Positions 35,449-62,504 of a stretch of DNA of 64,000 nt are shown here, in pieces. The DNA lies in contig CAKOQM010000001.1 of NCBI GenBank assembly GCA_934101275.1, forward strand, positions 5,371-69,370, read 5' to 3'. Position 1 is the stretch's first letter. Each line of letters begins with the position of its first letter. The translations under genes and the position numbers were made by a program. The notes under the pieces are model-generated. The model did no database searches. It saw only the letters and a list, made by a program, of their open reading frames with translations, and was not told the origin of the DNA. Source of the DNA: an uncultured Bacilli bacterium (GTDB taxonomy: Bacteria; Bacillota_I; Bacilli_A; RF39; UBA660).

Positions 35449-36243
35449 ATGAACAGATTAAACGAATTATTACAAGAATTAGGAATTTCAAAAGTGCGTT
35501 TAGCAAAATATTTAGGTGTTTCTAGACAAATGGTATATAATTACCTTGAACTTGACGATATTAATAAGTGGCCTAAAGAAAAGAAAATTTTGCTTTATCG
35601 TTTATTAGATATTAATGATGATAAAAATCAGTCTATTGATTCTATAAAAGTAACAACAGATTATCTTATGAGTGTAGAAAATAGATTAAATACAGGTGTT
35701 AAAGGCACTAACAATATTTCTAACTATTTTGACTTAAAGAATTTAAATAAGGAATCTCAAATTCTTATTACCAATATTTTAAATCTATTAAGAGAAAGGT
35801 TAGGGGATGATAAGAAAAAGCAAGAAAATTATTACGCTTTTTTATACCTTTATCATATGCTTCAATCTATGGACAATGTACCTGAAATAAAATATATATT
35901 TGGTTATATGTCTAAAGCAACAGGATTTACAAATCCTGAGGAATTCAAATTTAATGAAGATAGACAATTTATCTTTGAAGGAATATTGTACTCTGCCCTA
36001 ACGCTTTATAACAATGGGGGAGCCTCACGTAGTAAACTTGCCCTATCACATAAACGTTTTGTTCAAGAGATAGAAAAACAAAATGAAGAAAAATTAAGTC
36101 GTACGCAACAATTATTTACTTTAAGAACGCAAGCTTTAAAAGAACTTGGTTATAGTGAAATGAACGGTTCGAATGCTTCTGAAATTATTGAAAAAATTGC
36201 TGAAATTGAATCACGTGGTTCAATTATGAATGCTGATGAATAA
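35449..36243 (+). CDS. HTH-domain protein (N-terminal XRE-like HTH, uncharacterised C-terminus)
   Basis: 264 aa; 'LGISKVRLAKYLGVSRQMVYNYLE'. Confidence 0.6.
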   Translation: MNRLNELLQELGISKVRLAKYLGVSRQMVYNYLELDDINKWPKEKKILLYRLLDINDDKNQSIDSIKVTTDYLMSVENRLNTGVKGTNNISNYFDLKNLNKESQILITNILNLLRERLGDDKKKQENYYAFLYLYHMLQSMDNVPEIKYIFGYMSKATGFTNPEEFKFNEDRQFIFEGILYSALTLYNNGGASRSKLALSHKRFVQEIEKQNEEKLSRTQQLFTLRTQALKELGYSEMNGSNASEIIEKIAEIESRGSIMNADE

Positions 36244-36501: not shown

Positions 36502-36529
36502 GTATTTTTAAAAGTTGCATAATATATAT
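36502..36529 (+). repeat. dif-like XerCD-type site (attL of the prophage)
   Basis: AAGTTGCATAA-TATATA-TTATGTTAACC; spacer and right arm match the Firmicute dif consensus recalled from B. subtilis (ACTTCCTAGAA-TATATA-TTATGTAAACT) at 6/6 and 9/11. Confidence 0.55.
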
Positions 36530-36547
36530 TATGTTAACCGTGATATT

Positions 36548-36832
36548 TTAAATTAAATGCAGTTCGCTATACTGCTCTTGTTCTCTTTTTTTATAGATTT
36601 CTAAAAGTTCGATACGTTGTTTTATTAATTCTTTATAAAACATAAGTTCTTTCATAGAATAACACGACAACATTGCATAGCGTTTGTAATATTCATGATG
36701 ACCATAAACCTTACAAAAATTATAAGCACATACTAACAAATCATATCGATTTTTTAAATAAGTTAAGTTATTACAAGAACTAACTTCTTTTACAAACTTC
36801 TTTTCATTTTCAGATAAACCTTTATAAATCAT
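36548..36832 (-). CDS. Phage hypothetical protein (possibly the C-terminal part of a frameshifted rep)
   Basis: 94 aa; overlaps the rep 3' end by 11 nt in another frame. Confidence 0.4.
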   Translation of the reverse strand: MIYKGLSENEKKFVKEVSSCNNLTYLKNRYDLLVCAYNFCKVYGHHEYYKRYAMLSCYSMKELMFYKELIKQRIELLEIYKKREQEQYSELHLI

Positions 36833-37451
36833 AGTAAGACATTACCCTTTCATACGGCTCATTATGTTTTTGCAAAGCCCTTATAAATGTCACAGTCGAA
36901 CGTCTATAAATATCATACAAACCATTTAAAGCCACATACCTAACAAAATCTTGTTCATCTAAGTAACCAACAAAACTATCAATGTAATCCAACAATTCTA
37001 AAACCTTTTCACTCTCATCTTTACCGGAATTTTTAATATAATTTTTTAACTTTTGTTTGAGACTACCCTGTACATTTCTAACGTCATATTGATACTTATC
37101 AGGTTCATTATAATGAATCAAATAAAGTAAACTACGTTCTAAACTTCGACATTTTTGTATATAATTAATTTCAATACCTAAATCTTTAGCTAAAGCCGAA
37201 TTCCATACTGGATTATTAAAACGGATAACAACATGTGTATGAACTTTTTTTAGATTTCCATCTTCATCTAAATCACTATCATGATTAATCGAAGCATAAT
37301 CGTATGAACGTTTTACAATCTCAATTGCTTCTTTATGGCTTTCGTCCTCATTTGGATAAAGTAACAAGCAAAACTTTCTATCTCTAAACTTTTCAATAGC
37401 CAAACTATCACCCTCCCCTATTTTGACACAAATTTTTTTAAATTGACACAA
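36822..37451 (-). CDS. Rolling-circle replication initiator (HUH endonuclease)
   Basis: 209 aa; HUH-like 'KKVHTHVVIRFNNP'; Tyr-rich 'YLIHYNEPDKYQYDV'; sits next to the hairpin-rich IG region. Confidence 0.55.
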   Translation of the reverse strand: MCQFKKICVKIGEGDSLAIEKFRDRKFCLLLYPNEDESHKEAIEIVKRSYDYASINHDSDLDEDGNLKKVHTHVVIRFNNPVWNSALAKDLGIEINYIQKCRSLERSLLYLIHYNEPDKYQYDVRNVQGSLKQKLKNYIKNSGKDESEKVLELLDYIDSFVGYLDEQDFVRYVALNGLYDIYRRSTVTFIRALQKHNEPYERVMSYYDL

Positions 37452-37922
37452 TGGTATGTGTCAGAAAAAAGCCTTTATTTATCGTACTTAATAGACCTTT
37501 GACACATGACACACAGATTGCTATTAGTCGTAGTATAGCAATCTATAATTTATAATCTTTTATATTATAGTATTTATATTATTAAATTACTTATATATTA
37601 AATAATTTAATTTTTTAGCTGGTTAGGTGCGAAAGCACGATTATAACATCAAAAAGAGATAATTATAAAAACAGTTCATTAAAATTTTTTTGATATCGCT
37701 TTTTATAACAAGATAGATACTCTTTTTAATGTTAAAAAATTATACTTGCTTCCACTTCGTCAAGGCTATTGCAGTTATCAAGCAGAATATCAACGAAGCA
37801 GCAAAACCTTGACAAAGATACGAATTTCTTTCAAATAAGTTTTTATAAAATGGATTAAGTTCTATTAAATTAATAACCAGCTAAAAAAATCATAAAGATT
37901 GCTATTTTATTGTATATAAAAA
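37452..37922. repeat. Phage intergenic region with nested inverted repeats (candidate ssDNA origins or packaging signal)
   Basis: 14-bp inverted repeat ttttttagctggtt (37610-37624) and aaccagctaaaaaa (37873-37887); internal palindromes cttcgtcaagg...ccttgacaaag, ttgcag...ctgcaa-like; no coding potential. Confidence 0.5.
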
Positions 37923-38204
37923 CTAGCTTGCATTAATTGGCAATTTTCGAATAATCCACATTGAAAAATGATAAATATGATCAAAATTCGCGGCTAAAAT
38001 TACTAAAGGAACTAGCGTTTTAATCGTCGAAATACGAACAAAAAAACCTAATAAATCCAAATGATCAAAAATAAGATTAACAAAACCGTTAAGACTTGTT
38101 AAAATTGATACGTCTAATTGAGGCAAACTTGGCAACACGGCAAAAATCAAATCAACTAATAATTTAGCTAAATCTAATATAAAAGTTGTAACCATCACTA
38201 TCAA
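37923..38204 (-). CDS. Phage small hydrophobic protein (minor coat or pVI-like candidate)
   Basis: 93 aa, largely hydrophobic; overlaps the upstream gene (ATGA). Confidence 0.45.
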   Translation of the reverse strand: MIVMVTTFILDLAKLLVDLIFAVLPSLPQLDVSILTSLNGFVNLIFDHLDLLGFFVRISTIKTLVPLVILAANFDHIYHFSMWIIRKLPINAS

Positions 38205-39985
38205 ACCTTCTTTCGAATCCTGTATTCACGATGAGTTTTATGAGCCGTAACGGATTGATGAACTTGATTATTATCATCAATTGTATAATTTTGGCTAGCT
38301 GATAAAATATCCGTTTCGTACGTATCATTATTACCAAAAACACGATTATAAATATTAGAACAATAATTAAAAAAACTTAACATCAGCAAAGCATCTACAC
38401 ACATCAAATAAATATCATGCATATTTTTAATATTACTATCATTTAACAAACTAGCTAAATCAAAAGAGCCGGCTGAAATGATTGTTCCGTCAAAATTAGC
38501 AACTTTAAAATTAGGCCACGAAATCACATAAGAACCAGTATCCGTTAACTCGGTAAATCTTTCTAAAAATGTAATTATCCAAGTAAACGGATAACTTAAA
38601 AAGCCAAATTGATTAGTTAAACTCTCATTCACGCCTTTAAACCAGTACGAAAGGTCCTCTTTTGAAGGAACAAACAAAGACCTCAACATATTGCGAAAAT
38701 TAGACCAAAAATCCTCTGTACTTTTTTTAAAAGAATCAAAAAAGTTAGAAATTGTATCTGCAACAACCTCATTCGAAGACTTTGAAGTAAAATTATAAGT
38801 TGCCTTAGCAACATTACCATTTGAATCAACAATTCTAAAATATAAAGTATGTTTACCAAAATTAACATTACTAAACGTATAATGATTCGTTGGAATATCA
38901 ATCCAAGAACCATCGTCAAGTTTCAAATAGTATTTTTCAATTTTACCAGACATGGCATAACTATCACGTAAATCGACATAAATATTACTATCATTATAAG
39001 AAACAATATAACGTAAAACCGGTAACAAAGATGTTTTAACATCAACATTAAAAGTTGAAAGAGGTGTATTTGAACCGTCTTTATAAACGGCTTTTGCTGT
39101 ACCAGAATAAGAACCATTACTAAAACCGGTTAGCGTTACAGATTTCTCAGTCGTATAAACATAATCATAGCTACCCAATGTATAATAATATCCAACAACG
39201 TTATCCTCATCTGTAGCATTAAAATTTAATGTGATATCCGAACCACTAACCGAACTTGTTACATTTAAAAGACCTAAGTTATCACTTTCATAATTAATAT
39301 CTGATGAAAGATATAAATAATATATATTTTCAATATAATCCGTTGCAGAATCCGTTTGAGCATATGCTTTATTATCTAAATCAACAAACAAACTAAAGAA
39401 TTCAATATATTTTTTAGGAACACGACAACTAATCACAGCACTCGGAAAATCAGAATTGGAGCTTGTTGTTAAACAATCATATGGCTTATATGTTTCGTTA
39501 TTTGCATCACCAAACCTCGATTGCACACTAAAATGTAATCTATTAAAAATTTGATAGCTTTCAAAAATACCAGCTTGTATTTCATTATTTTTTGCTGAAG
39601 CATACATTCTAAAATATAAAGTATAAAAATTATTATCATTTGAAAGTATTCCTTGATTAAAAAAATTTTCATAAGAAAAACGATAAGAATTTGTTGTTAA
39701 ATAATAATCTGTTAACTCATTTGCTTTTACATAAACAGGAATACGATAACCTGTAAAATTTGGATACAAATTACTTATTTTTTTATCATTTAAATAATCA
39801 AGTTTCAAATAATCAAGGTTAGAATAATTAAAGTTTTGATAAGTATCAGAATTATTAAACCTATAATAAAGATATTTAGGTCTTATCTGAACAGGAGTTA
39901 AAGCATTAACATGAGTAATATCAAAAAATAAAGTTACGAAACTCAATGTTGCAAATATAAAAATCGTTTCTAATATTCTTTTCAT
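38201..39985 (-). CDS. Phage large secreted protein (candidate adsorption/pIII-like protein)
   Basis: 594 aa; N-terminal signal peptide 'IFIFATLSFVTLFFDITHVNA'; Asn/Ser/Tyr-rich; hydrophobic C-terminal region. Confidence 0.5.
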   Translation of the reverse strand: MKRILETIFIFATLSFVTLFFDITHVNALTPVQIRPKYLYYRFNNSDTYQNFNYSNLDYLKLDYLNDKKISNLYPNFTGYRIPVYVKANELTDYYLTTNSYRFSYENFFNQGILSNDNNFYTLYFRMYASAKNNEIQAGIFESYQIFNRLHFSVQSRFGDANNETYKPYDCLTTSSNSDFPSAVISCRVPKKYIEFFSLFVDLDNKAYAQTDSATDYIENIYYLYLSSDINYESDNLGLLNVTSSVSGSDITLNFNATDEDNVVGYYYTLGSYDYVYTTEKSVTLTGFSNGSYSGTAKAVYKDGSNTPLSTFNVDVKTSLLPVLRYIVSYNDSNIYVDLRDSYAMSGKIEKYYLKLDDGSWIDIPTNHYTFSNVNFGKHTLYFRIVDSNGNVAKATYNFTSKSSNEVVADTISNFFDSFKKSTEDFWSNFRNMLRSLFVPSKEDLSYWFKGVNESLTNQFGFLSYPFTWIITFLERFTELTDTGSYVISWPNFKVANFDGTIISAGSFDLASLLNDSNIKNMHDIYLMCVDALLMLSFFNYCSNIYNRVFGNNDTYETDILSASQNYTIDDNNQVHQSVTAHKTHREYRIRKKV

Positions 39986-39988
39986 ACT

Positions 39989-40555
39989 CTACCTCCTTCT
40001 TTTAAACTCAATAGCTAAAAATATTAATAAAATAGCTATAGTAATCATTAAAAAATATGGTTTTAATTCATCTAATGTTAAACCATTTGTTGAAGCGTTT
40101 GTATCGTTTGATGAATTATCATTAACTTTTTTATCGTGATAATTTGTTACGTATGAACCATTAAAACTCAAATTAGACCAACCAGACGTGCTTTTATAAG
40201 TAGAATAAATACCTAATGAATCTTGCTCAAAAATATAACACTGCGCGGTCAAATGACCGTTAAATGAAGAACGATTAACACTAAAAGAAGAACCAGAACC
40301 AGTTTTATGATTGGTAGATGTAATAGCATCATCATTTAAAAAACATAAACGTAATTGTTTATCAGATTCAAAAACAGTACGACCTATAACATAATAATCT
40401 AAAAATGAAGAATACGAAAACCAAAGTTCCCTTTTAGCAAACGTCTCAACATAATCGGGTACATCGTAAAACTTAAAAGTAGATGCACTAACAGAAATTG
40501 TTTGAAGTGATAAAGATATAATCATAATGGATAAAAAATAAATAATCTTACGCAT
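39989..40555 (-). CDS. Phage secreted protein with C-terminal membrane anchor
   Basis: Signal peptide 'MRKIIYFLSIMIISLSLQTISVSA'; C-terminal TM plus 'KRRR'; start set at the ATG at 40555 (ORF-track TTG 40597). Confidence 0.45.
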   Translation of the reverse strand: MRKIIYFLSIMIISLSLQTISVSASTFKFYDVPDYVETFAKRELWFSYSSFLDYYVIGRTVFESDKQLRLCFLNDDAITSTNHKTGSGSSFSVNRSSFNGHLTAQCYIFEQDSLGIYSTYKSTSGWSNLSFNGSYVTNYHDKKVNDNSSNDTNASTNGLTLDELKPYFLMITIAILLIFLAIEFKRRR

Positions 40556-40695
40556 ATTATCACAATACTTTCTTTTTATTACCACCGATAAAGTCAAGCA
40601 TTAAATTAATTAATCTGTTAGCAATTTCAAAAACTAAATAAATTGGAAAAGCTACAACAAGTAAAGAAGCAATGCAATTAACAATAACTTGGTAA

Positions 40696-41421
40696 TCAAC
40701 GTTTACTATCATAAATATCAACACCTTTACTTTCAATTTTTAAATTTTTGTTTTCAATAACTTTATAAGTATCATACCTTTTAAACGACAAAGGATTTTT
40801 AAAGTATCTAAATACCCTTTTGACGGTACCTTTTAAATTCGTTCCAGTACTCTCTTCACCGTCAATACTATTTCGGTCGATAAGACTATTTTTTTGTAAA
40901 AAACCAAATAGCTTTTTTTCACAATAAATTACAACATCAAATTGCTCACGTAACTGTTTGGCCATCCGGCCAAACACTTGACTCGTAGCAACAATATGAA
41001 TACGTTGTTTACGTTGTTGAGCTATTTGAGTCATAACATCCATATCAATATTTTTGCTACCTAATGAATTAAAATAAAGTTGAATCTCATCGATTAAAAA
41101 GATAACTCCTTGTTTACCATTTTTATACTTTGTTAAATCCTTTGCTTCTTGAAATAAAAATACTCGTTCATTATCAAAAGGATAATCTGTTAGTTCTAAA
41201 TTCGTAACAATTTTACAATTAGGATACAACTTTAACAATTTATATACATAATTTACAGCTGATAAAGTTTTACCAGAACCTTGAGGCCCACAAAAAATAC
41301 AAAGGCCATCAGGTCGAAAGTAATCAGGATTTTCTCTATAAAAATCACGTTGATACTTAAGTTGTTTAAAAATATTTAAAGGCCCTAGCTTTTCTTTTAA
41401 AGCATAAGCACTAACCGCCAT
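40696..41421 (-). CDS. Zot-like (pI-type) filamentous-phage assembly ATPase
   Basis: 241 aa; Walker A 'GPQGSGKTLSAV', Walker B 'IFLIDEIQLYF'; RBS AGGTGA. Confidence 0.7.
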   Translation of the reverse strand: MAVSAYALKEKLGPLNIFKQLKYQRDFYRENPDYFRPDGLCIFCGPQGSGKTLSAVNYVYKLLKLYPNCKIVTNLELTDYPFDNERVFLFQEAKDLTKYKNGKQGVIFLIDEIQLYFNSLGSKNIDMDVMTQIAQQRKQRIHIVATSQVFGRMAKQLREQFDVVIYCEKKLFGFLQKNSLIDRNSIDGEESTGTNLKGTVKRVFRYFKNPLSFKRYDTYKVIENKNLKIESKGVDIYDSKR

Positions 41422-41429
41422 AAAATCAC

Positions 41430-41531
41430 CTACTTATTTTTATGAAAAATTTTATTCCAAGCCCAATTAAAAAACTTGTATATTAAAAATACTAAAAAGA
41501 AACTTAACAGGCTACTCATAACATCATTCAT
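41430..41531 (-). CDS. Phage small membrane protein (33 aa; pVII/pIX-like minor coat candidate)
   Basis: MNDVMSSLLSFFLVFLIYKFFNWAWNKIFHKNK; ATGAATGA overlap with the upstream ORF; not in the ORF track. Confidence 0.35.
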   Translation of the reverse strand: MNDVMSSLLSFFLVFLIYKFFNWAWNKIFHKNK

Positions 41532-41727
41532 CTTTTTGCTCCTCTCTTTTCTCATCAATTTTTTTACTTAAATTTTTAAGCAATGCTTTTCTTTCTGGTT
41601 TACTTAATTTATTAAATTTATGTAGCAAAACATATAAATACTCTAATTGGTCTAAAGTTAAATTATCTAAATTATTCATAATCACTAAATTTTTAGAAAA
41701 AAAGGAATGATAAAACACGCATATCAC
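41524..41727 (-). CDS. Phage hypothetical protein
   Basis: 67 aa; charged C-terminus. Confidence 0.35.
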   Translation of the reverse strand: MICVFYHSFFSKNLVIMNNLDNLTLDQLEYLYVLLHKFNKLSKPERKALLKNLSKKIDEKREEQKDE

Positions 41728-41745
41728 TCCTAATTTTCCAACGTA

Positions 41746-41961
41746 TTATAAACGAATACGTCCAGCCGCAACAGCGCTTGTGAAAGCATTAACAGCTTTA
41801 CGAACTCCTAACCAAAGTAAGAAGAAGCCCATACCTACACCAACAACAGAAGCTAAAACATTTAAAACTTGAGCTGTAGTAATAGAACTTGTTAGCGCTG
41901 TAATGAAAGCAGTAAAATCAATCGTTGTAGGTTGAGTTTCTTGAGATGCTTCCATAGACAA
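41746..41961 (-). CDS. Major coat protein candidate (pVIII-like)
   Basis: 71 aa; acidic N-terminus, single TM 'VVGVGMGFFLLWLGV', basic C-terminus 'RKAVNAF...GRIRL'; RBS GGAGG. Confidence 0.55.
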   Translation of the reverse strand: MSMEASQETQPTTIDFTAFITALTSSITTAQVLNVLASVVGVGMGFFLLWLGVRKAVNAFTSAVAAGRIRL

Positions 41962-42138
41962 ACCTCCTTTTCATTCTTTTTGTCCTTTTTTATAAAAAAG
42001 GAGCGTCTTACTAAAAGCGGTCAAACAGTAAGACAACAGTTTATAAGCTGCTGGTTTTTAATTTTAAGTATATTAGAATAAAGAGTTTATAAGATAAAAA
42101 TATATATAAATTTTTACTTAAAATCACCGCAAATTTTT

Positions 42139-42408
42139 TTAATATCGTTTATTTTTATTTTTTTCAACATAAATATAAACAACTTTACGACCAAAATGTT
42201 TTTTGAACCACAAACGAATACTTCGAAAAAAATATTTAATCTTAGTTTTTAAATTTCTAGAGGGTTTAAGATTGTAATAGCCTATATATTCTTCACCAAA
42301 ACCATTATAGCTACCAATTTTCAAAGGTATTGAATCTTTATAAGGTTCATAACCAAATCTACATCTATAACAATCATGATTGTAACTATAATAAATTAAT
42401 AATCGCAT
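42139..42408 (-). CDS. Phage hypothetical protein
   Basis: 89 aa, basic, Tyr-rich. Confidence 0.35.
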   Translation of the reverse strand: MRLLIYYSYNHDCYRCRFGYEPYKDSIPLKIGSYNGFGEEYIGYYNLKPSRNLKTKIKYFFRSIRLWFKKHFGRKVVYIYVEKNKNKRY

Positions 42409-42682
42409 TGTTATACTTAATACCAGTAATTTTAGTCTTTGGCTTCATTGGATTCATAGGATTTTCAACGGTTTCAACCATTAAAGTACATTCCTTGTTT
42501 ACCATTTTTTCATCAAGCTTATCAAAAGCAGTAATCGGCAAAAATGCATAAAGTACAATGTATCCTTTTACCTTTTCAGATTTACAAGGCTTATCGGTTG
42601 CAATATAATCGATTCTTGTATAAGGTTCTTTACCTTTCGGACAACATTTTGTTATCGTTGTCAAATTAACTTTTAATTCCAT
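42386..42682 (-). CDS. Phage hypothetical protein (ssDNA-binding gV-like candidate by position and size)
   Basis: 98 aa; assignment is by context only. Confidence 0.3.
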   Translation of the reverse strand: MELKVNLTTITKCCPKGKEPYTRIDYIATDKPCKSEKVKGYIVLYAFLPITAFDKLDEKMVNKECTLMVETVENPMNPMKPKTKITGIKYNNAIINLL

Positions 42683-42738
42683 TTTTTACGCTCCTTTTCT
42701 ATCTTTTGTTTTATGGCACAAAAGCTAAAGCCAAGAAA

Positions 42739-42954
42739 TTACCAGAAACCTCTATTAGGCGAATAAACAACATTATTTACATAAACATTCTCTAAATGAA
42801 GTTGATTCAAAAGAATATTGAAAAATTTTAAAGCTTGTTCTTTTGTTTTAAAATGAAAAGTTGCGAATGATAAATTACCGTCTAAAAAATGAATTTTAAT
42901 AAACCTATCATCTAGCTCCAAAATGTGTAAATAATTATCATTTATAAAATACAT
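42739..42954 (-). CDS. Phage hypothetical protein
   Basis: 71 aa. Confidence 0.35.
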   Translation of the reverse strand: MYFINDNYLHILELDDRFIKIHFLDGNLSFATFHFKTKEQALKFFNILLNQLHLENVYVNNVVYSPNRGFW

Positions 42955-43442
42955 ACGTCTTTTTTTACAAGATTAATTGACTTATTTAAAACATCACGAC
43001 ACAGGTTTACAGCTTCGGTTTTATCACAAAAAGAAAATTCAATTTCATCTAAACCAGAAGAATCATTAAAGCCTAATTTGATAATATACAAGCCTAAAGC
43101 GTCTTTATAAGCTTTAATAAATTTCACTTTTAAATAATCAATAGTAAATTCCATATCCTCAACTACTTCCTCAACTTCCTCATCAGTCATACATAAAAAC
43201 TTTTTAATAATATATCTTACATCCGAATATGATTTACAAGTACCGTCATATAAATAAATGTAGCCCTCTTCACCAGTTAAAATATCAAAAGCTTTTGCCA
43301 TTTCGGAATCGGAATCACAAAAGTAAACACAATAAGCATTTATAAAGTTTTCATATGTTAAGTCAATGTCGTTTTCTTTCATATAATCGTTAACTTTTCT
43401 CATATTCATCATTTCATAAACAATATTAATCATCTTTATCAC
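42942..43442 (-). CDS. Phage hypothetical protein (acidic)
   Basis: 166 aa; first gene of the minus-strand module, divergent from the XRE repressor. Confidence 0.45.
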   Translation of the reverse strand: MIKMINIVYEMMNMRKVNDYMKENDIDLTYENFINAYCVYFCDSDSEMAKAFDILTGEEGYIYLYDGTCKSYSDVRYIIKKFLCMTDEEVEEVVEDMEFTIDYLKVKFIKAYKDALGLYIIKLGFNDSSGLDEIEFSFCDKTEAVNLCRDVLNKSINLVKKDVCIL

Positions 43443-43547
43443 TCCTTTTATATACGTTTAACGCATTTATATATCAATTATATACGTGTGACGTTTACTT
43501 GTCAATACGCAATAAGTATATTTTGTAAAATAACTTTGGTGAGGAAA

Positions 43548-43781
43548 ATGAATATAAATAGATTGAAAGAAATAAGAGAAGATAAAGATTATAAACAAAG
43601 TGAGGTTGCAAAAATTCTAAATGTAACACAAGCACAATATAGCAGATATGAAACAGGTGAAAACACAATTCCACTTGACAAAATATATAAACTAGCAGAA
43701 TTTTACAAAACATCAATAGATTATCTAGTTTATAGAACAGATGAAAGAAATCCTTATCCAAAAAGTATAATGAAAAATTGA
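43548..43781 (+). CDS. XRE-family HTH repressor (phage cI/Cro-like)
   Basis: 'MNINRLKEIREDKDYKQSEVAKILNVTQAQYSRYETGENTIPLDKIYKLAEFYKTSIDYLV'; ATG at 43548 behind RBS GGTGAGGAAA. Confidence 0.75.
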   Translation: MNINRLKEIREDKDYKQSEVAKILNVTQAQYSRYETGENTIPLDKIYKLAEFYKTSIDYLVYRTDERNPYPKSIMKN

Positions 43782-43792
43782 AAGAGGAAAAA

Positions 43793-43945
43793 ATGAACAA
43801 TCAAAGTTTAGAAGAAATTAATCAAAGTTTAAAAACAATAAAAGATATTATTGTTGAAGAATATAAAAGAAAAAAAAGTATCGAAATGTTAAAAATTGCT
43901 ATAGCCCTTCTTATATTTGCTATTATCTACATTAGATACTCATAA
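43793..43945 (+). CDS. Small membrane protein (50 aa)
   Basis: MNNQSLEEINQSLKTIKDIIVEEYKRKKSIEMLKIAIALLIFAIIYIRYS; RBS AAGAGGAAAA; hairpin aagattgc/gcaatctt just downstream (43949-43977). Confidence 0.45.
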   Translation: MNNQSLEEINQSLKTIKDIIVEEYKRKKSIEMLKIAIALLIFAIIYIRYS

Positions 43946-44022
43946 AAAAAGATTGCCTAAAACCAATTTGCAATCTTAAAATAAAGGACTTATTTTTCAA
44001 GCATCAATAGGAGGTGACAACA

Positions 44023-44115
44023 TTGAAAAATACAATTAATTCAAAAAAACACAAAATTTTAACAATATGTATAATTCTATTCTTTGTTTTATTAGCAATT
44101 TCAACATTAAAATAA
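44023..44115 (+). CDS. Small hydrophobic peptide (30 aa), putative
   Basis: TTG start behind a strong RBS AGGAGGTGA; MKNTINSKKHKILTICIILFFVLLAISTLK. Confidence 0.3.
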   Translation: MKNTINSKKHKILTICIILFFVLLAISTLK

Positions 44116-44189
44116 AACATCGATAATTAATTAAGCCCTTTACGATACCTAAATTACATTTTTATAATAAATTAAGTATCGCAAAAGGT

Positions 44190-44366
44190 TTATTTTTTTA
44201 ACCTTTTGTACAACTTACAACCCATATTACTAATCATTCTTAATAAAATCAATATTGCAACAAGAAGAATAAATCCAATTATATATTCAAAATCATTAGT
44301 AATAAAATAAAAAATAAATGAATCAATAAAAATAATTAAGCATAACAGAATTTCATAATTATTCAT
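44190..44366 (-). CDS. Small membrane protein (58 aa), putative
   Basis: MNNYEILLCLIIFIDSFIFYFITNDFEYIIGFILLVAILILLRMISNMGCKLYKRLKK; RBS AAGGGG; hairpin aaaaggtt/aaccttttt at 44183-44207 overlaps the stop. Confidence 0.35.
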   Translation of the reverse strand: MNNYEILLCLIIFIDSFIFYFITNDFEYIIGFILLVAILILLRMISNMGCKLYKRLKK

Positions 44367-44393
44367 AAAGTAACCCCTTTACACATTTTGATA

Positions 44394-44421
44394 TTTTCAT
44401 AACGTAAATATTATGTTAACC
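44394..44421 (+). repeat. dif-like site, second copy (attR of the prophage)
   Basis: TTTTCATAACG-TAAATA-TTATGTTAACC; shares the 17-mer a[t/a]atattatgttaaccg with 36514-36530. Confidence 0.55.
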
Positions 44422-44459
44422 GCAATAGTTTAAATTATTATTTATAAGATACTCTTTGT

Positions 44460-45209
44460 TTATAATAAACGATTTAAAAATAAAATTAGAATTCCGACAA
44501 AACTACCTAATAATAAAAACGTCTCTTGATGATACGATAAAGCTTTGGGAAGTAATTCTTCAATAGCTAACGTTATCATAATACCACCAACAAAAAGCAA
44601 AATTATACCAATTAATTCTGGTGAAAGAAATGGTTTTAAAAACAAGCAGGCAATAATCGCTCCAACTGGTTCGGCTATACCAGATAAAAAAGTCATTCCT
44701 ATAGCTTTTCTTTTGTTTTGTGTGGCATAATAAATAGGAACCGCTATACTAATTCCTTCGGGAATATTATGAAGCATAATAGCTATACTGATATGTAATC
44801 CGAGAGAAAAATTTTGATAACTGCTCAAAAAGGTTAAGATGCCTTCTGGCAAGTTATGGAGCATAAGAGTGAGCATACTTAAAATACCTAATCGATATAA
44901 AGAACTATCCCCTCTTCCCTTCTCTATTTTTTGGTTTATAAAACGAATCGTAAAGATAGAAAAAAGAAAAATAAATAAAGACAACAAGATACCTTTAACT
45001 AATTTAAATTTTGTTAGAATAATATAACTAGCTTCAGGTATCAATTCTAAAATCGAAATACCAATCATTATCGTTAAAGAAAGGCTTAAACAGAAAGTAA
45101 TAAATTTATTAATACTTTTATGTGACCATTTCAAAAAAATAACGAAAGATCCCAAAACAGTTGATAGACCAGCCATGGTAGATAAAATAAAAGGAATAAA
45201 AAAAGACAT
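44460..45209 (-). CDS. zupT: ZIP-family divalent metal transporter (ZupT-like)
   Basis: 249 aa, 8 TM; 'HNLPEGI' and 'HNIPEGISIAVPI' signatures. Confidence 0.8.
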   Translation of the reverse strand: MSFFIPFILSTMAGLSTVLGSFVIFLKWSHKSINKFITFCLSLSLTIMIGISILELIPEASYIILTKFKLVKGILLSLFIFLFSIFTIRFINQKIEKGRGDSSLYRLGILSMLTLMLHNLPEGILTFLSSYQNFSLGLHISIAIMLHNIPEGISIAVPIYYATQNKRKAIGMTFLSGIAEPVGAIIACLFLKPFLSPELIGIILLFVGGIMITLAIEELLPKALSYHQETFLLLGSFVGILILFLNRLL

Positions 45210-45233: not shown

Positions 45234-46259
45234 TTAAAATTTCTTTTTAGAAAGACTATTTTTTCTTTTTAAATACTCATCAAAATTTAAAATTCCTAAC
45301 CGTAAGAGATCTTCTAAAGACGAATTATAAATATCATTGGTATCCATTTCTTTCATGACTGCCTCTACTCCACCGCGATCAAAAATTTCTTCCATTAAAG
45401 AATTGTCGAAGCTTTGCATTTTTATCTTTTGCTCTAGATAGTAATCTTCCATACTCATATGTGTTTTAAATTCGTCTTGTGACATAAGATTAGGCGCAGC
45501 TGGTATGCGAGCTAATCTTCTTTTGGCTTCTAAAATAGAAATCGTTCCTGGTGTATTTTCAAGTCCAAATAAAAACTTAGGATAATAGTATTCCATTCTA
45601 CTTTGAATTTGATTTATATTTAAAGGATTTTTATGTAAGTAGTTTAAATACTCTACAACAAGGCCTCTTAATTTTTTATAGGATAATAGATCTTCTAAAA
45701 TAAGATTATTTTTAAAAGGCTTATAGTCAATAAGACGTCCTAAAATTCTTTTATCTAAAACGGCACAATTTTCATAATTAAAGTAGTTAAAGGAAGCGTT
45801 ATTACTCACAATGTTGTTAATAATGCGAAAGACATATTCTCTAAAGAAAGGCGTATCTTCTAGATTTAATTTTCTTGTTTTTATATGGACGACGTTGTTA
45901 TATCTTTCTTGAGCCAATTTAGCAAGACCACTATAAATTTTAGCTTTCAAATCGGTTAAATTATCAGGAAGAGAATAATTATATATTAACTCATAAGTAT
46001 GAAAATTGAAAAAATCCTTTTTACTATTGGTAACTCTTAAAATATAAAAATCTGTTTTTTCATCAATCACATATAACGAGTTGGCGTGTTTAATAAGTTT
46101 CAAGAATTCTTCCTTAGAATAATGCATGGTAAATAAATCAATTAGAGAAATATCTTTAAATTGTTCTTGTAACATTAGACTTTGTGAAAAATCAGGCATT
46201 TTAAGAACACACGCTCTTCCGTGATTGGCACCTATTAAATAATAATAGCTTCTTTTCAT
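45234..46259 (-). CDS. Hypothetical protein
   Basis: 341 aa; no recognisable motif. Confidence 0.5.
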   Translation of the reverse strand: MKRSYYYLIGANHGRACVLKMPDFSQSLMLQEQFKDISLIDLFTMHYSKEEFLKLIKHANSLYVIDEKTDFYILRVTNSKKDFFNFHTYELIYNYSLPDNLTDLKAKIYSGLAKLAQERYNNVVHIKTRKLNLEDTPFFREYVFRIINNIVSNNASFNYFNYENCAVLDKRILGRLIDYKPFKNNLILEDLLSYKKLRGLVVEYLNYLHKNPLNINQIQSRMEYYYPKFLFGLENTPGTISILEAKRRLARIPAAPNLMSQDEFKTHMSMEDYYLEQKIKMQSFDNSLMEEIFDRGGVEAVMKEMDTNDIYNSSLEDLLRLGILNFDEYLKRKNSLSKKKF

Positions 46260-46493: not shown

Positions 46494-46527
46494 AAGGAAG
46501 AATGATGTCGTTTCTTCCTTATTTTTT
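46494..46527. terminator. Bidirectional rho-independent terminator (small basic ORF / xerD)
   Basis: aaggaagaa-N9-ttcttcctt then ATTTTTT. Confidence 0.65.
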
Positions 46528-47394
46528 GGCATGAGGATGAAATTCGTTATATTCATCCTTGTTTTTTTGATTTGTCACATGTGTATAAATTTCTGTTGTT
46601 GAGATATTGCTATGGCCAAGAAATGTTTGAATCGTTCGTAGGCTTGCGCCATTTAAAAGTAAATGTGTTGCAAAAGAATGACGAAGCATATGAGGATTTA
46701 CCTTTCTATCAATTGTTTGTAAGGATATTTCATTTAAAATTTTATTCATTCCTTGTCTTGTTATTGGTGTTCCTCGATTGTTTAAAAAAAGTTCATCATA
46801 TACTTTACCTTTTTTGACAAGTTGACTTCGATATACATTTAAATACAATTTTAAATACTTTAGGGAAGTTTCATTTAGATAAACCACTCTTTCTTTAGAA
46901 CCCTTTCCTTCTACGACTACCCATTCCTGTTCAAAATCAATATTTTTAAGTTTCAGTGAAACTAATTCACTAATTCTTAAACCTGTTGCATAAAGGATTT
47001 CTAACATTGCCTTAGTACGATAATCAAAAATCGTTTTTAAAGGAAAAGAAAGTAATTTATCAACTTCTTCATAGGAAAGATAATTAGGTAAATGCTCCCC
47101 TATTTTAGGAAAGAAAATGGTAGAACAAGGGTTAATTGCCTCTTCTTTTCCTTCGTTTAAAAAATCATAAAACCCATTTAATGTAGATAGATAATGAGAT
47201 CGTGTTCTTTCGTTTTGTCCACGGCTTTGTAAAAAGGAAAGAAGATCGTCTTTTGTTAAATCTAAAGCGGACTTTCTATCTTTAAAAAAAATTTTTAATT
47301 GATTTAAATCATTTTCATAAGAAAGTAATGTATTTTCACTTAACTTTTTTTCAAATTTTATATATTCTTTATATCTTGTTATTTCTTGTTTCAT
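46519..47394 (-). CDS. xerD: Tyrosine recombinase, XerD/XerC-like
   Basis: 291 aa; C-terminal catalytic 'LRHSFATHLLLNGASLRTIQTFLGHSNISTTEIYTHV'; about 2.1 kb from the dif-like site at 44394. Confidence 0.75.
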   Translation of the reverse strand: MKQEITRYKEYIKFEKKLSENTLLSYENDLNQLKIFFKDRKSALDLTKDDLLSFLQSRGQNERTRSHYLSTLNGFYDFLNEGKEEAINPCSTIFFPKIGEHLPNYLSYEEVDKLLSFPLKTIFDYRTKAMLEILYATGLRISELVSLKLKNIDFEQEWVVVEGKGSKERVVYLNETSLKYLKLYLNVYRSQLVKKGKVYDELFLNNRGTPITRQGMNKILNEISLQTIDRKVNPHMLRHSFATHLLLNGASLRTIQTFLGHSNISTTEIYTHVTNQKNKDEYNEFHPHAKK

Positions 47395-53363: not shown

Positions 53364-53714
53364 CTAATTTTTAGGTTTAAAAATAAAAGATAAGACAAAA
53401 GCAAAAATAACAGCACTCGTTATTGCCGCGGAACTTTTGACAAGTAAACCACTAAAGAGACCTAAAATTCCCATTTCATGGTAACCTTCTATAACACTTT
53501 GATAAAGCATATTACCAAAGTTAGAAATCAAAATCGTCGCGCCTGCTCCTCCAAAAGATATAAGTTTTGGATAAAGGCCAAAGAAAGCTAAAATAGCCCC
53601 TAAAACAGTAAACATAGAAGTGATATGGCCAGGTGTTAATTTTGTATTATCTAAGATAAGTTGGGCGACAAGACAAAAAAGACCTGTGACCAAAAAAGCA
53701 TTTATATAAATCAT
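53364..53714 (-). CDS. spoVAEB: Stage V sporulation protein AE (SpoVAEb-type)
   Basis: 116 aa membrane protein; 'FGGAGATILISNFGNMLYQSVIEG' SpoVAC/SpoVAEb family core. Confidence 0.7.
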   Translation of the reverse strand: MIYINAFLVTGLFCLVAQLILDNTKLTPGHITSMFTVLGAILAFFGLYPKLISFGGAGATILISNFGNMLYQSVIEGYHEMGILGLFSGLLVKSSAAITSAVIFAFVLSFIFKPKN

Positions 53715-54691
53715 TTTGTGACCTCCAAACTAACAGCATGAGCAATGGCTGGAATTGTTATTTTTTGATTAACAAGAAAAGGATTATGTAAGGAACCCGT
53801 TCCTATAATCAAAATACGATGATACTTATTAGATTTTAAGATTTTTCCAAATAAATAAAGTGGTAAAGCAACAGGGCCGCTGGCACCTGCATTTGTTTCT
53901 TCCTGATTTTTTAAATATAATTCGCAGCCAGCATCTAAATGTTTTGTAAGTTTTATGTGATAGGCTTGTTTTAAATATTCTTTTAATATTTTTGATCCAA
54001 TACAACCTAAGTCTCCTGTTAAAATAAGATCATAATAATCTATAGAACGTTTCATTTCCTTTAAATGTTCATTTAAAACATCCGCGGCAGCAGGGGCCAT
54101 GATCGCTCCCATATGGCTTGTATCGTTTTGTCCCATATCAATAACTTTACCAATCGTATAACTTTCTATTTTTATAGAAGAAGGCTCCTTTGTAAGTAAA
54201 ACACTAACACTACCCGTGGCCGTAAACGTCGCAGTTAAGGGTCTTGGCGCGCCGTATTCAATAGGATAACGAAATTGCTTTTCAGCCGATAAATTATGTG
54301 ATGATGTCACACAGATTCCTAAAGCTTTTGTTTTATTTTCGAGAAATTCCGCGGCTAGAAATAGACTTTCCACAAAAGATGCGCAGGCGGAATAAACACC
54401 TAAATAAGGTATATTATAATAACGAGCCGCATAACTAGATGTTCCAATTTGATTCGATAAGTCCCCTGAAACAAGTAAAGAAATCTGACTTGGTAACAGG
54501 TGATTTTTTTCTAGTAAATTATCTACAGCAACTTTTTGCATTTTAATTTCTGCTTGTTCAAATGTACTTGCTTTAAAATAAAAATCATCTAAAGTCATAT
54601 CATAATCTTTTACACTCCCCTCTTTTTCGAAAGGTCCCGCAATTGTAAAAGTATCTTTGATATAGACATTATTTATTTTTTTACTAGCCAT
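53711..54691 (-). CDS. spoVAD: Stage V sporulation protein AD
   Basis: 326 aa; thiolase/ketoacyl-synthase-like fold, 'MASKKINNVYIKDTFTIAGPFEKEG'; overlapping starts and stops with its neighbours. Confidence 0.8.
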   Translation of the reverse strand: MASKKINNVYIKDTFTIAGPFEKEGSVKDYDMTLDDFYFKASTFEQAEIKMQKVAVDNLLEKNHLLPSQISLLVSGDLSNQIGTSSYAARYYNIPYLGVYSACASFVESLFLAAEFLENKTKALGICVTSSHNLSAEKQFRYPIEYGAPRPLTATFTATGSVSVLLTKEPSSIKIESYTIGKVIDMGQNDTSHMGAIMAPAAADVLNEHLKEMKRSIDYYDLILTGDLGCIGSKILKEYLKQAYHIKLTKHLDAGCELYLKNQEETNAGASGPVALPLYLFGKILKSNKYHRILIIGTGSLHNPFLVNQKITIPAIAHAVSLEVTK

Positions 54692-55121
54692 AAATGATCA
54701 CCCCTAAAATTCCTAAGAAAAAGGCACTTACCATACCGTATAATAATACACTTCCTGCCAAGCGAAAAAAATTAGAACCAAGACCTGTAATAAGGCCATC
54801 ACGTCTATAATCTAAGGCGGCTGAAGTAACCGAATGGGCAAATCCTGTTGTTGGTAAAAAAAGACCGGCCTGACACTTACTTACCCATGTATCAAAAAAG
54901 CCTAACGAGGTCAAAAAACTAGAAGCAAATATCATTGTAATGCAAAGCCATACAAAAGCTTCTTTTTGGGGAATACCAAAACAATTTTCTAACACCGTCA
55001 CAAAAATTTGACCCATTAATCCTATTAATCCTCCCACGAAAAAAGAAATAAAAGCACGTTTCATTTTAGGCTCTTTTGGTTTTAACTCATCCACTAATTT
55101 TTGATATTCATCTTTATTCAT
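54684..55121 (-). CDS. spoVAC: Stage V sporulation protein AC
   Basis: ATG at 55121 behind RBS AGGAGGA; membrane protein 'FISFFVGGLIGLMGQ...LFLPTTGFAHSVTSAALDYRRDG'. Confidence 0.75.
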   Translation of the reverse strand: MNKDEYQKLVDELKPKEPKMKRAFISFFVGGLIGLMGQIFVTVLENCFGIPQKEAFVWLCITMIFASSFLTSLGFFDTWVSKCQAGLFLPTTGFAHSVTSAALDYRRDGLITGLGSNFFRLAGSVLLYGMVSAFFLGILGVIIYG

Positions 55122-55217
55122 ATCTGTCCTCCTAGCCCTAGTATGGAATGTTTTTTTAAAATTATACCCATAGACAGGCAATCAAATGTATGGTAGGATT
55201 ATAGACGAGGTGTAGAA

Positions 55218-55844
55218 ATGGAAGAAAGTGTAAAATTAACAGCCAAACAGGAAAAAGTTTTGGATTGCATAAAAAAGTATCAAGCAGAGCATGGTTTTCC
55301 CCCAGCCGTCAGAGAAATTTGTGAAATCCTAGGCTTATCAAGTCCTGCCACCGTACAATCCCATATTAATAATTTAAAAAAAGCCGGTGTGATTCGTAAT
55401 TCAAGCAACAAATTTAGAACACTTGAATTACTTGTTGACAATGAATATTTAAAAGAAGAAGATGGTATTATAAAGGTACCTTTACTTGGTAAAGTAACTG
55501 CAGGAAATCCTATCGAAGCTATTGAAAAGCCAAATGAATTTTTTGAACTTCCTGCTTGTTTAGTTCCTTTAAATAAAACAGTTTTCACTTTAAAAGTAAG
55601 TGGAGATTCTATGATTAATAAAGGTATCCAAGATGGGGATATTGTAATATTAGAAAAACAAAATGTTGCAAATAATGGGGATATTGTGGTAGCCATGACA
55701 GAAGATAATGAAGTGACTTTAAAAACTTTTTATAAGGAAGAGGATCATATCCGTTTACAACCTGAAAATGATACGATGAAGCCTTTTATTTTCCATAATG
55801 TGACCATTTTAGGAAAAGCTATTGGCCTTTTTCATCAATTTTAA
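55218..55844 (+). CDS. lexA: LexA repressor
   Basis: 208 aa; N-terminal wHTH; C-terminal S24 peptidase 'VSGDSMINKGIQDGDIVIL', Ala-Gly cleavage site 'VTAGNP'. Confidence 0.9.
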   Translation: MEESVKLTAKQEKVLDCIKKYQAEHGFPPAVREICEILGLSSPATVQSHINNLKKAGVIRNSSNKFRTLELLVDNEYLKEEDGIIKVPLLGKVTAGNPIEAIEKPNEFFELPACLVPLNKTVFTLKVSGDSMINKGIQDGDIVILEKQNVANNGDIVVAMTEDNEVTLKTFYKEEDHIRLQPENDTMKPFIFHNVTILGKAIGLFHQF

Positions 55845-58718: not shown

Positions 58719-59095
58719 ATAATGACTTCCTTTCACATAAAAGAATAGCACAGAAATATTAAAAGAAAAAGATATTATTTCTTTGCCATTTTCATCAATG
58801 TTTAAAATGAATAATTTCTAATACCCGTTTTGGTACTTTCTCTTAAAAATTTCCTAATATCTTTAATAATTATTTTTATCATAACTTCTAAAAAATAGTA
58901 TAAAAAAACTTAGCCAATACTATCAGCTAAGATTATATCACGATGGTCGAGAAGACAGGATTATTAAGTATTAGACGATACAAGTCGTAATCTTCGGATT
59001 TACGGCTTTTTTTGATGCATTATTATCCCTTAAAAATGATTTATATCCTTTAAACTCCAAAAAAATTAAGTGAAATTTAAAGGAGTGTGATATAT

Positions 59096-59848
59096 ATGTC
59101 AGTATTTCGAGTAGAAAAAAACAAAAATTATACTGTAATGAGTAATTATCATTTACAAGATAGAGATTTATCCTTAAAAGCAAAAGGTTTGCTCTCATTT
59201 ATGTTAAGCTTACCAGATGATTGGGATTACTCTTTAAATGGACTAGTATCCATATGTAAAGAAAAACACTCATCAATCAGAACCACATTACAAGAACTAG
59301 AAACAAAAAAATATTTAGAAAGAATACAAAATCGGAACGAAAAAGGTTTATTTGAATATGATTACATAATTTATGAAAAGCCTTATCAAAATGAACCGTA
59401 TATAGATTTTCCACATACGGATGAACCGCATACGGAAAATTACACACAAATAAATACTAATAGAAAAAATATTAATAAAAAAGATAAATTAGATATAAGT
59501 ACCGAAGGAATAATGAATTACCTAATCCAAACTAAATTTTTAGATATCACTGATATTGAAATATATCGCTATAAAGAACTTATTAAAGAATTATTATCAA
59601 AATACACAAAAAATTCACTCTATAAATCACTATGCTATGTTATAAGCAAAATGAAAGATAACAAAAACATTTCAAATAAATTTGCTTACTTTCAAAAAGC
59701 ATTAATTAATGGTTTAGCATTATCAGAAAAAAGTAATGTTCCAGATTGGTTAAATAAGAAAATTGAAAAAGAAAAATTATCCAAGTCTGAAGAATTAGAA
59801 ATGCTTGATTTATTAAGTAAATATAAAGAAACCGAGGTGGCGAAATGA
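59096..59848 (+). CDS. Replication initiator / DnaD-like protein (plasmid or phage RepA N-terminal-like)
   Basis: ATG at 59096 behind RBS AAAGGAG; winged-helix-like 'LSLKAKGLLSFMLSLPDDWDYSLNGL'. Confidence 0.5.
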   Translation: MSVFRVEKNKNYTVMSNYHLQDRDLSLKAKGLLSFMLSLPDDWDYSLNGLVSICKEKHSSIRTTLQELETKKYLERIQNRNEKGLFEYDYIIYEKPYQNEPYIDFPHTDEPHTENYTQINTNRKNINKKDKLDISTEGIMNYLIQTKFLDITDIEIYRYKELIKELLSKYTKNSLYKSLCYVISKMKDNKNISNKFAYFQKALINGLALSEKSNVPDWLNKKIEKEKLSKSEELEMLDLLSKYKETEVAK

Positions 59849-60087
59849 GAGTGTTAACGAAGGAAGGCATTATGTTAAATGATGTGGATACTATTGAACA
59901 ATTTAAAGTAATAACTTATTTAAAAAAATATCCCTTTACAAATAGTTCAAGACTATTTCTATATGATCGATATACAATAAAAGTTATAGACAGTAATAAT
60001 GACGTTGGTTATTTTAAATACGAGAAAGATGGGCAAATACGTTTATTAGAAGAAGAAAATAAAGAAATGGATTCTTTTTCATTATGA
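59845..60087 (+). CDS. Hypothetical protein
   Basis: 80 aa; overlapping stop/start with its neighbours. Confidence 0.4.
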   Translation: MRVLTKEGIMLNDVDTIEQFKVITYLKKYPFTNSSRLFLYDRYTIKVIDSNNDVGYFKYEKDGQIRLLEEENKEMDSFSL

Positions 60088-61346: not shown

Positions 61347-61370
61347 AAAGGTAAAGTTAACTCACTAACT

Positions 61371-61613: not shown

Positions 61614-61681
61614 GCATACAGTATGACGGTATAATTTTATCGTATTCCATACGAGTAGTATGGATAAGAAAGGGATAAAAT

Positions 61682-62286: not shown

Positions 62287-62504
62287 ATTCACTAAAATGA
62301 CATTTTAGTAACACACTACGATATCGGCAGAGCCAATATCGGTGTGCCAAAGGATATTCCTTTGGATACCTAATTGTTTTCCTTTAAAAATTTAAAGAAA
62401 AACAAATACCCCGTCACATAAATGTAACGGGGATTATATTACACTAAATTTACTATCGCTACTTTCATTTGCTAACGCAAACAAAACGTGCCACGTAAAT
62501 TTTT

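Follow-up and report, generated by a model that had tools for sequence, protein, structure and literature searches.

We analysed a 64,000-nt stretch (hereafter the window) of contig CAKOQM010000001.1, from a metagenome-assembled genome (MAG) of an uncultured Bacilli bacterium. An element inserted at window positions 36,540-44,437 is very probably a temperate filamentous phage (inovirus-like, order Tubulavirales) of 7,882 bp that occupies dif, close to where chromosome replication terminates, in a probably spore-forming gut bacterium of the Bacilli. None of its 18 open reading frames (ORFs) matched an integrase or a transposase in Pfam or PHROGs. Given this lack of a recombinase and the location at dif, host Xer recombination is the obvious route of integration, and the element is an inovirus that probably uses the host Xer proteins, that is, a mobile element that integrates by making use of Xer (an IMEX) in Bacillota. 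A first-pass annotation, made from the sequence letters, had proposed a filamentous prophage of about 7.9 kb at this place; the flanking repeats and the comparison with empty sites both yield 7,882 bp.

Insertion at dif and distribution among hosts

The boundaries of the element were obtained in two ways. A 33-nt direct repeat (repeat family D5), 88% identical between its copies, stands at 36,523-36,555 and 44,405-44,437, and the two copies are 7,882 bp apart. The difference in length between the lysogen and empty-site contigs, which were retrieved by exact-protein look-ups of the flanking host genes, is also 7,882 bp. The empty sites come from four metagenome contigs of independent samples (L092, L093, L094 and L098), near-identical to the window except for the absence of the element. 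In each of them, the gene of a 264-aa helix-turn-helix (HTH) protein is joined straight to a ZIP transporter gene via a single intact dif, and the junction reads AAGTTGCATAA TATATA TTATGTTAACC GTGA[T/C]ATTTTAAATTA TTATTTATAAG. The search for an empty dif, which the first-pass annotation had suggested as a check, was therefore successful in four contigs. The 264-aa HTH gene (35,449-36,243) was also considered as a part of the element, and rejected, since it exists at the empty sites and diverges as host genes do (91-94% identity).

Contigs from further samples carry the prophage at the identical place (lysogen-positive data include the runs ERR7738599 and ERR10687750 and the MERR22-1 and Hadza samples), and the ENA scaffold MERR22-1_SAMEA4766095 scaffold_716 (L001) is 100% identical to the window. 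The same phage was also found in a second, diverged host, represented by L002, L105 and the MAG contig CAKOOQ010000002.1 (L008). Between the two hosts, the element (36.5-44.4 kb) is 97-100% identical, against 87-94% for the left flank (73% in its intergenic part) and 65-84% for the right flank, and the drop in identity falls exactly at both attachment (att) sites. An element 97-100% identical between flanks that are only 65-93% identical indicates, as judged from sequence comparison, a recent movement of one phage between two host species by horizontal transfer, which would rule out an old, fixed remnant.

A dif site consists of an 11-bp XerC arm, a 6-bp central region and an 11-bp XerD arm (PMC5357621, PMC4246890). 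The Rep-proximal att site, attL (36,512-36,539, plus strand), is an intact host dif of 28 bp, with XerC arm AAGTTGCATAA, central region TATATA and XerD arm TTATGTTAACC, and is identical to the sequence of all four empty sites. Its right half appears to be close to the XerD-binding half of the dif sites of E. coli and B. subtilis. The dif-like 23-mer core occurs once in the window, where 0 occurrences are expected. Moreover, GC skew is positive from 1 to 32 kb and negative from 36 kb on, with the change of sign at dif. This switch looks like a replication terminus, although the minus-strand prophage itself adds to the local negative skew. No tRNA or Rfam RNA family that could serve as attachment site was found in the window.

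The second site, attR (44,394-44,421, plus strand), is a hybrid, TTTTCATAACG - TAAATA - TTATGTTAACC, found also in the second host (L008 and L105). Compared with dif, it matches 11/11 positions of the XerD arm, 5/6 of the central region and, in register, 2/11 of the XerC arm. With a spacer of 8 nt, the site of the phage becomes TATTTTCATAA-CGTAAATA-TTATGTTAACC, with 8/11 matches to the host XerC arm. The central region is TATATA at attL and at the empty sites, and TAAATA at attR in both host species. Each central region thus stays with its own XerC arm, so that the exchange would lie on the XerD side. The same distribution of TATATA and TAAATA led us to reject a simple exchange where XerC cleaves, of the CTXphi/VGJphi type. 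No inverted copy of the XerD arm was found within the element; the nearest one, at 44,572-44,582, is host DNA.

Similarity between the two sites continues beyond the XerD arm. The next 16 nt (36,540-36,555, plus strand; GTGATATTTTAAATTA) are repeated with three mismatches at 44,422-44,437, and phage-specific DNA begins at 36,556. The stretch reads GTGATATTTTAAATTA at attL and at the empty sites, GCAATAGTTTAAATTA at attR in the window, GTGATATTTTAAATTG at attR of the second host and GTTATATTTTAAACTA at attL of a related phage (L114). Three readings of this similarity are possible: the mimicry of host sequence by the phage may extend past the Xer core, the stretch may be swapped between host and phage via crossovers at variable positions, or three bases may have set the lysogenised lineage apart from the empty-site lineages that were sampled.

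The same att layout was found in nine related prophages from MAGs labelled Bacilli or Tenericutes (L018, L019, L020, L022, L023, L027, L028, L032 and L041). In each of these, the central region and the XerD arm (17-23 nt) are exactly the same at both sites, whereas the XerC arm is of host type at the Rep-proximal site (e.g., ACTTCCTATAA) and divergent at the regulator-proximal one. L023 and L027 are tandem arrays, in which the internal phage-phage junctions reveal attP directly. The bases following the XerD arm at attL prove, from these junctions, to belong to the phage, and the crossover in these arrays lies within the shared core. The array of L023 (2729-13276) contains two near-identical dif-flanked copies about 4.9 kb apart, and that of L027 (8539-18166) a 4.2-kb element beside a 5.4-kb pI phage at one dif. 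Two other relatives (L024:8796-19133 and L026:8006-14857) have a mirror layout, with the XerC arm and central region conserved and the XerD arm degenerate. In L024, the mirror-type element is stacked at one dif with a second element, of 5.2 kb, that has the layout of the window element.

Structural genes, replication module and regulation

The genes of the element form a tight array on the minus strand, from 43,442 down to 36,548, with a short divergent pair on the plus strand at 43,548-43,945; the genes described below are on the minus strand unless stated otherwise. The gene set that the first-pass annotation had listed was recovered in our analysis: a compact single-strand module, an HUH Rep, a Zot/pI-like ATPase, a 71-aa acidic-transmembrane-basic pVIII-like protein, tiny membrane proteins together with two large signal-peptide proteins, a hairpin-rich non-coding region and a divergent XRE repressor. 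The profile hidden Markov model (HMM) searches that it had proposed for Rep and the ATPase were both positive.

The pI/Zot-like morphogenesis ATPase (40,696-41,421; 241 aa), with the Walker A motif GPQGSGKT, matches the Zot family PF05707 (E 1.5e-9; 38 bits, with a cut-off of 20.3 bits) and phrog_197 (5.5e-13). It is 45-51% identical to Zot/ATPase genes of circular faecal inoviruses and belongs to a family of >2,645 clusters at 90% identity, many of them on contigs of 4-7 kb and many on long bacterial contigs. Overlapping its 3' end lies the gene of a 50-58-aa protein with a transmembrane (TM) segment (40,560-40,736), 27-86% conserved in relatives, which may be the membrane partner of pI or stand in for its membrane and C-terminal part.

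The candidate for the major coat protein (41,746-41,961; 69-71 aa) has an acidic N-terminus and a basic C-terminus, with one TM-like segment between them (residues 35-53). Among the genes of the element only pI is better conserved; the coat candidate is 60-90% identical in relatives from Bacilli-type MAGs, and its 135 homologues all measure 61-81 aa. An AlphaFold2 model shows a disordered N-terminus and helices at residues 17-26 and 29-65 (predicted local distance difference test score 84). The sole HMM match of this protein is weak, to phrog_2186, 'virion structural protein' (E 0.011).

TM-like segments are encoded by several ORFs of 33-93 aa; the small ORFs with such segments number six. A 93-aa protein with two TM-like segments (37,923-38,204), 27-78% identical across 24 related loci, is a pVI-like minor-coat candidate. 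The 594-aa secreted protein (38,201-39,985) is a candidate for a pIII-like adsorption protein, with a signal-like segment at its N-terminus and a weak hydrophobic segment near the C-terminus (525-543); it is variable, 22-47% identical in relatives, and gave no reliable domain match. A type-I membrane protein of 202 aa (188 aa according to gene callers; 39,989-40,597), with a signal-like N-terminus and a C-terminal TM segment followed by KRRR, is a further minor-coat or assembly candidate. Two small overlapping ORFs, at 41,430-41,558 (42 aa, one TM-like segment) and 41,524-41,727 (51-67 aa), are both kept in L114. In the early region (42,139-43,442), ORFs of 89 aa (basic), 71 aa and 166 aa (acidic) have no family match and are conserved only in the closest relatives. 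Across the 24 related loci, the core consists of pI, the coat, the small TM protein after pI (p58a) and the 93-aa protein, with the 594-aa protein more loosely attached. This conserved core was found in 20 or more related loci, whereas the rep and regulator modules are mosaic and exchanged.

The Rep protein (36,822-37,451; 209 aa) is a rolling-circle initiator of the HUH type and of the RepB/pMV158 (Rep_2) family. It matches PF01719 (Rep_OBD) with E 3.6e-17 (63 bits, cut-off 24.6 bits), contains the motif HTHVVI, and is 26-31% identical to Rep proteins of small Firmicutes plasmids and 25-40% identical to those encoded by the rep genes of circular faecal inovirus genomes. Sequence searches of PDB with Rep and with the pI profile returned nothing useful. 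A putative double-strand origin, a hairpin with a 10-bp stem (37,515-37,546), stands on the coding strand, 64 nt upstream of the rep start codon. Its loop, ACTACGACTA, together with the last stem base gives TACTACGAC (37,527-37,535), which is the published RepB nick sequence TACTACG/AC (PMC5030251). The window contains this 9-mer a single time, where 0.08 copies are expected. The same motif was found about 120 nt upstream of rep in the circular bajarodino virus 66, and also on the pI strand of related prophage loci. An exact RepB nick motif in a hairpin loop, combined with a plasmid-like Rep, leads us to consider Rep and this predicted origin a matched pair of RepB type.

The origin hairpin is part of a structured non-coding region (37,452-37,922) that is a candidate for both replication origin and packaging signal. 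Folded as single-stranded DNA (ssDNA), the 474 nt at 37,452-37,925 reach -59 kcal/mol, compared with -36.2 +/- 3.6 for shuffled sequences (z -6.3). Downstream of rep, a 94-aa ORF (36,548-36,832), whose stop codon falls within the 16-nt stretch described above, has no family match and is 85% identical in L114. A 98-aa protein with an OB fold (42,386-42,682) is a candidate for a gene-V-like ssDNA-binding protein, a role for which there is moderate support. In the related locus L112 (6050-7075), pI is 81% identical and the structural genes have the same order, but the initiator is an unrelated 341-aa REP_ORF2-G2P protein; replication modules are therefore swapped between close relatives.

Transcription of the array could be controlled from a regulatory region at 43,448-43,521, with a promoter and operator-like repeats. 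A perfect sigma-70 consensus promoter (TTGACA-17-TATAAT; 43,505-43,477, minus strand) is directed towards the phage operon, back to back with the gene of the XRE-family repressor. The sequence TATATACGTnTnACG is present there in two direct copies and one inverted copy, overlapping or flanking the promoter. The arrangement looks like a repressor-operator switch, with these repeats as the putative operators. The divergent plus-strand pair (43,548-43,945) encodes the 77-aa repressor (43,548-43,781), with matches to HTH_3 (4e-16) and phrog_8 (7e-24), followed by a TM protein of 50-55 aa. At the regulator-proximal end of the element, a 58-aa multi-TM accessory protein (44,190-44,366) lies in a block 100% identical between the two hosts.

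Proposed life cycle and alternative explanations

The candidate for the integrating enzyme is a host protein, the 291-aa Xer-family tyrosine recombinase encoded outside the element at 46,519-47,394 (minus strand), 2.1 kb from dif. It scores 284 bits with NF001399 (cut-off 279 bits) and 297 bits with the XerD model TIGR02225, which is below the cut-off of 330 bits. Its gene is also found beside an empty site (L094) and is the sole Xer gene seen in the window. The XerD and XerC models give the protein about equal scores, both under the respective equivalog cut-offs.

Based on these data, we propose the following life cycle. The double-stranded replicative form would carry a dif mimic with conserved central region and XerD arm and a divergent XerC arm. 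The host Xer recombinases would join this mimic with dif, so that an intact dif is restored at the Rep-proximal end (attL) and the hybrid is left on the regulator side (attR). With the exchange to the XerD side of the central region, TATATA would stay with the host arm and TAAATA with the phage arm. In the lysogen, the XRE repressor would silence the consensus leftward promoter. On derepression, the RepB-type Rep would nick TACTACG/AC in the hairpin upstream of rep and rolling-circle replication would begin, while the 98-aa OB-fold protein would coat the ssDNA. The pI ATPase and its small membrane partner would then extrude the ssDNA through a single membrane, where it would gain the helical 71-aa coat and the minor proteins. 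In a monoderm host a secretin would not be needed, and no ORF of the element resembles one.

A number of observations weigh against a phage that integrates in this way. The pI protein has no TM-like segment and lacks the TM and C-terminal part of canonical pI. The coat candidate had no significant HMM match, and a Foldseek search with its model gave no match. The excised circle, looked for with the predicted attP junction (...TTTTCATAACGTAAATATTATGTTAACC[16 nt]AATGCAGTTCGC...) and with a degenerate att pattern, had no match in IMG/VR or in JGI metagenomes. The ORFs at the two ends (94 aa and 58 aa), when looked up, occurred in integrated contexts only, with no contig joining both phage ends. 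No virion, ssDNA or circular replicative form was observed for the element. As for the att sites, the first seven bases after the XerD arm (GTGATAT at attL, empty sites and second-host attR; GCAATAG at attR in the window) do not fit a simple core crossover, and the mapping of the crossover depends on one nucleotide only, replicated in two hosts and four empty sites. Additionally, none of the five circular GenBank relatives examined has a dif-like site of the window's type, and the family is thus not uniformly dif-integrating. Short contigs bearing pI had no terminal overlap, except for a doubtful one of 22 nt in L112. The first-pass annotation had called the prophage complete. Its completeness and activity are things we infer, activity from population genetics only.

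The lack of a circular form or of virion evidence is what would be expected of a defective or domesticated filamentous-phage remnant, fixed at the locus and immobile, and many dif-resident elements of other bacteria are indeed cryptic. Nevertheless, the element is polymorphic, as the four empty-site contigs show, all its ORFs are intact, and its identity of 97-100% over almost the whole length despite diverged flanks, with sharp steps at the att sites, requires recent horizontal transfer. A remnant is therefore improbable, and where the first-pass annotation had considered a domesticated block without flanking repeats, we found a polymorphic block bounded by dif repeats and shared with a second host. 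Even less probable, in our opinion, is a non-viral element integrated at dif by Xer, or an integrated rolling-circle plasmid, that carries a Zot-like ATPase and forms no filamentous virion. Its Rep belongs to the plasmid family PF01719, with relatives on small Firmicutes plasmids, and pI is the only protein with a virus-specific HMM match. On the other hand, pI, the coat, the 93-aa protein and the 594-aa protein are conserved as a unit that also occurs in complete circular genomes of 4-8 kb from animal faeces, and a study of purified particles from pig viromes reports similar Firmicute-type inovirus genomes together with filaments seen by electron microscopy (PMC9723715). The coat candidate, second only to pI in conservation and modelled as a long helix, and the OB-fold ssDNA-binding candidate also argue for a virus.

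Even if the element is a filamentous phage, it could have entered dif without Xer, through its own HUH Rep or by homologous recombination over about 33 nt of dif-like homology. The 16 nt after the XerD arm are alike at both sites, so that the crossover in the window may be read as lying outside the Xer core, and HUH proteins integrate DNA in other systems. However, the att sites have no RepB nick motif, the sole copy in the window being the one in the origin hairpin. In the nine relatives of like layout, moreover, homology is confined to the central region and XerD arm, and the tandem junctions place the crossover in the core. The two relatives with the mirror half-site (XerC arm and central region) are also what would be expected if Xer recognition is mimicked. 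We thus consider insertion without Xer unlikely and retain the host Xer recombinases as the probable agents.

A more far-reaching proposal is that the element represents a class of Xer exploitation not yet described. In such a class, the mimicry of dif by attP would be limited to the central region and XerD (RipX) arm, with the XerC arm divergent or displaced by 2 nt (the 8-nt spacer); the XerD-side crossover would reflect an exchange initiated by XerD without FtsK in monoderms; sister phages would use the mirror half-site, with both types stacking at one dif, as in L024; and the same phage would occur in two host species. We put this forward tentatively, and consider it rather doubtful as a whole. 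Our search of the literature met with no paper in which IMEX, XerD, filamentous phage and Gram-positive hosts come together, which is weak evidence, as the coverage was incomplete.

Relation to known phages, host and neighbouring genes

Several features of the element are those of Tubulavirales: a pI/Zot ATPase, a small helical coat, Rep with a structured origin, a compact genome within 4.5-12 kb, structural genes on one strand and free circular relatives. Others are those of IMEXs, namely insertion at dif, dif-like direct repeats (one of them hybrid) and the absence of an own recombinase. In Proteobacteria, the use of host Xer recombinases for integration at dif is well known. CTXphi, VGJphi, TLCphi and the gonococcal genomic island are, like the element, devoid of an integrase, located at dif, flanked by dif-like repeats and accompanied by one regenerated functional dif (PMC5357621, PMC4246890), and, as a further resemblance, relatives of the element form tandem and mixed arrays at one dif. 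There are also differences. Phages of the CTXphi type carry two inverted attP sites that form a forked ssDNA hairpin, a pair that the window element lacks. In TLCphi and the gonococcal island the divergent arm is that of XerD, whereas in the window element it is that of XerC, a mirror image; L024 and L026 are TLC-like in this respect. CTXphi and VGJphi use an exchange by XerC only, resolved by replication, while the central mismatch of the window element fits a XerD-side exchange. Finally, unlike the hosts of the Vibrio phages, the host here is a monoderm Bacillota bacterium, and the control of Xer recombination in Firmicutes differs from that in Proteobacteria (PMC5357621).

In its replication module the element resembles pMV158, whose RepB also belongs to PF01719 and has the identical nick sequence TACTACG/AC in a hairpin upstream of rep. 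It differs from plasmids of that type in that its Rep, only 26-31% identical to the plasmid proteins and without a sequence match in PDB, serves a phage genome. Compared with the Ff phages (M13, fd) and Pf3, it has no pIV secretin, has a short, TM-less pI followed by a separate small TM protein, uses another Rep family and is temperate, with a repressor.

The closest known phages are those of animal faeces. By tblastn against deposited phage records, the relatives are complete circular genomes of 4-8 kb named 'Inovirus sp.' (porcine) and 'bajarodino virus' (rodent faeces). The faecal inoviruses (porcine MT1352xx, bajarodino PQ0061xx and the Firmicute types of pig viromes; PMC9723715) share with the element the order pI, mid-sized protein, protein of about 500 aa, protein of about 90 aa and Rep; in bajarodino virus 39, the order downstream is Zot, proteins of 166, 482 and 94 aa, and Rep. 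They differ in being free circular genomes without an assigned host, whereas the window element is integrated, linked to a host, somewhat larger (7.9 kb) and equipped with an XRE lysogeny module. IMG/VR contained no close relatives when queried with a single protein, and five distant ones when queried with an alignment.

Inoviruses were reported in 2019 from many phyla, with hosts including Clostridium and Bacillus (PMC6813254), and inoviruses infecting Firmicutes are abundant in pig viromes (PMC9723715). The remark of the first-pass annotation that Gram-positive inoviruses are rarely annotated consequently no longer applies to those of the gut. The element is a further and expected example of an already known kind of phage; what deserves further work is its link to a host and its att architecture. 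Through this link, gut filamentous phages hitherto without hosts (>2,600 pI clusters, together with circular genomes recovered from the faeces of pigs, rodents and lemurs) are connected to uncultured Bacilli close to Candidatus Ventrenecus, and the element shows such phages becoming lysogens by occupation of dif. The attB, attL and attR sites, together with the attP of the tandem relatives, are defined substrates for tests of Xer integration in Firmicutes. The element also marks the position of dif, and with it the terminus of replication, in MAGs from an uncultured lineage. No toxin or cargo of obvious phenotype was found in the element.

Palindromic dif-like sites (AGTTTACATAA..TTATGTAAACT) were also observed 6-8 kb downstream of pI in prophages of Lachnospiraceae (L070:16050-16078, L071:16334-16362 and L074:18032-18060). 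This set includes the cultured Enterocloster citroniae DSM 19261; a second copy of the palindromic site was not found. Another cultured bacterium with a prophage of the pI family is Oscillibacter valericigenes An907.

The closest genome record to the window is that of an 'uncultured Bacilli bacterium', a MAG from the Hadza gut. Next come Candidatus Ventrenecus from chicken gut (pI 81-82%) and then MAGs labelled Bacilli or Tenericutes. That the host is a Gram-positive endospore-former, as the first-pass annotation had it, is plausible though not proven. The window encodes SpoVAD (PF07451, 1e-103) and SpoIVB (TIGR02860, 298 bits, just under the cut-off of 305 bits), both of which suggest sporulation, while a monoderm envelope is indicated by a weak lipoteichoic-acid-synthase-like match of 127 bits, against a cut-off of 970 bits. 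Further genes in the window encode MutS, HtpG and LexA.

The SpoVAD and LexA genes lie at 53,711-55,844, about 10 kb from the prophage; the host probably sporulates, and the SOS regulator could feed prophage induction. Between the ZIP transporter and Xer genes, a 341-aa protein (45,234-46,259) without a match in Pfam or NCBIfam is encoded at both occupied and empty sites. Farther to the right, a MobV/Mob_Pre relaxase (60,084-61,346) has an HTH_36 protein (59,087-59,848) on one side and an XRE-family protein (62,505-63,077) on the other, and the region 59,087-63,077 may be a second integrated element, in this case a mobilisable one.

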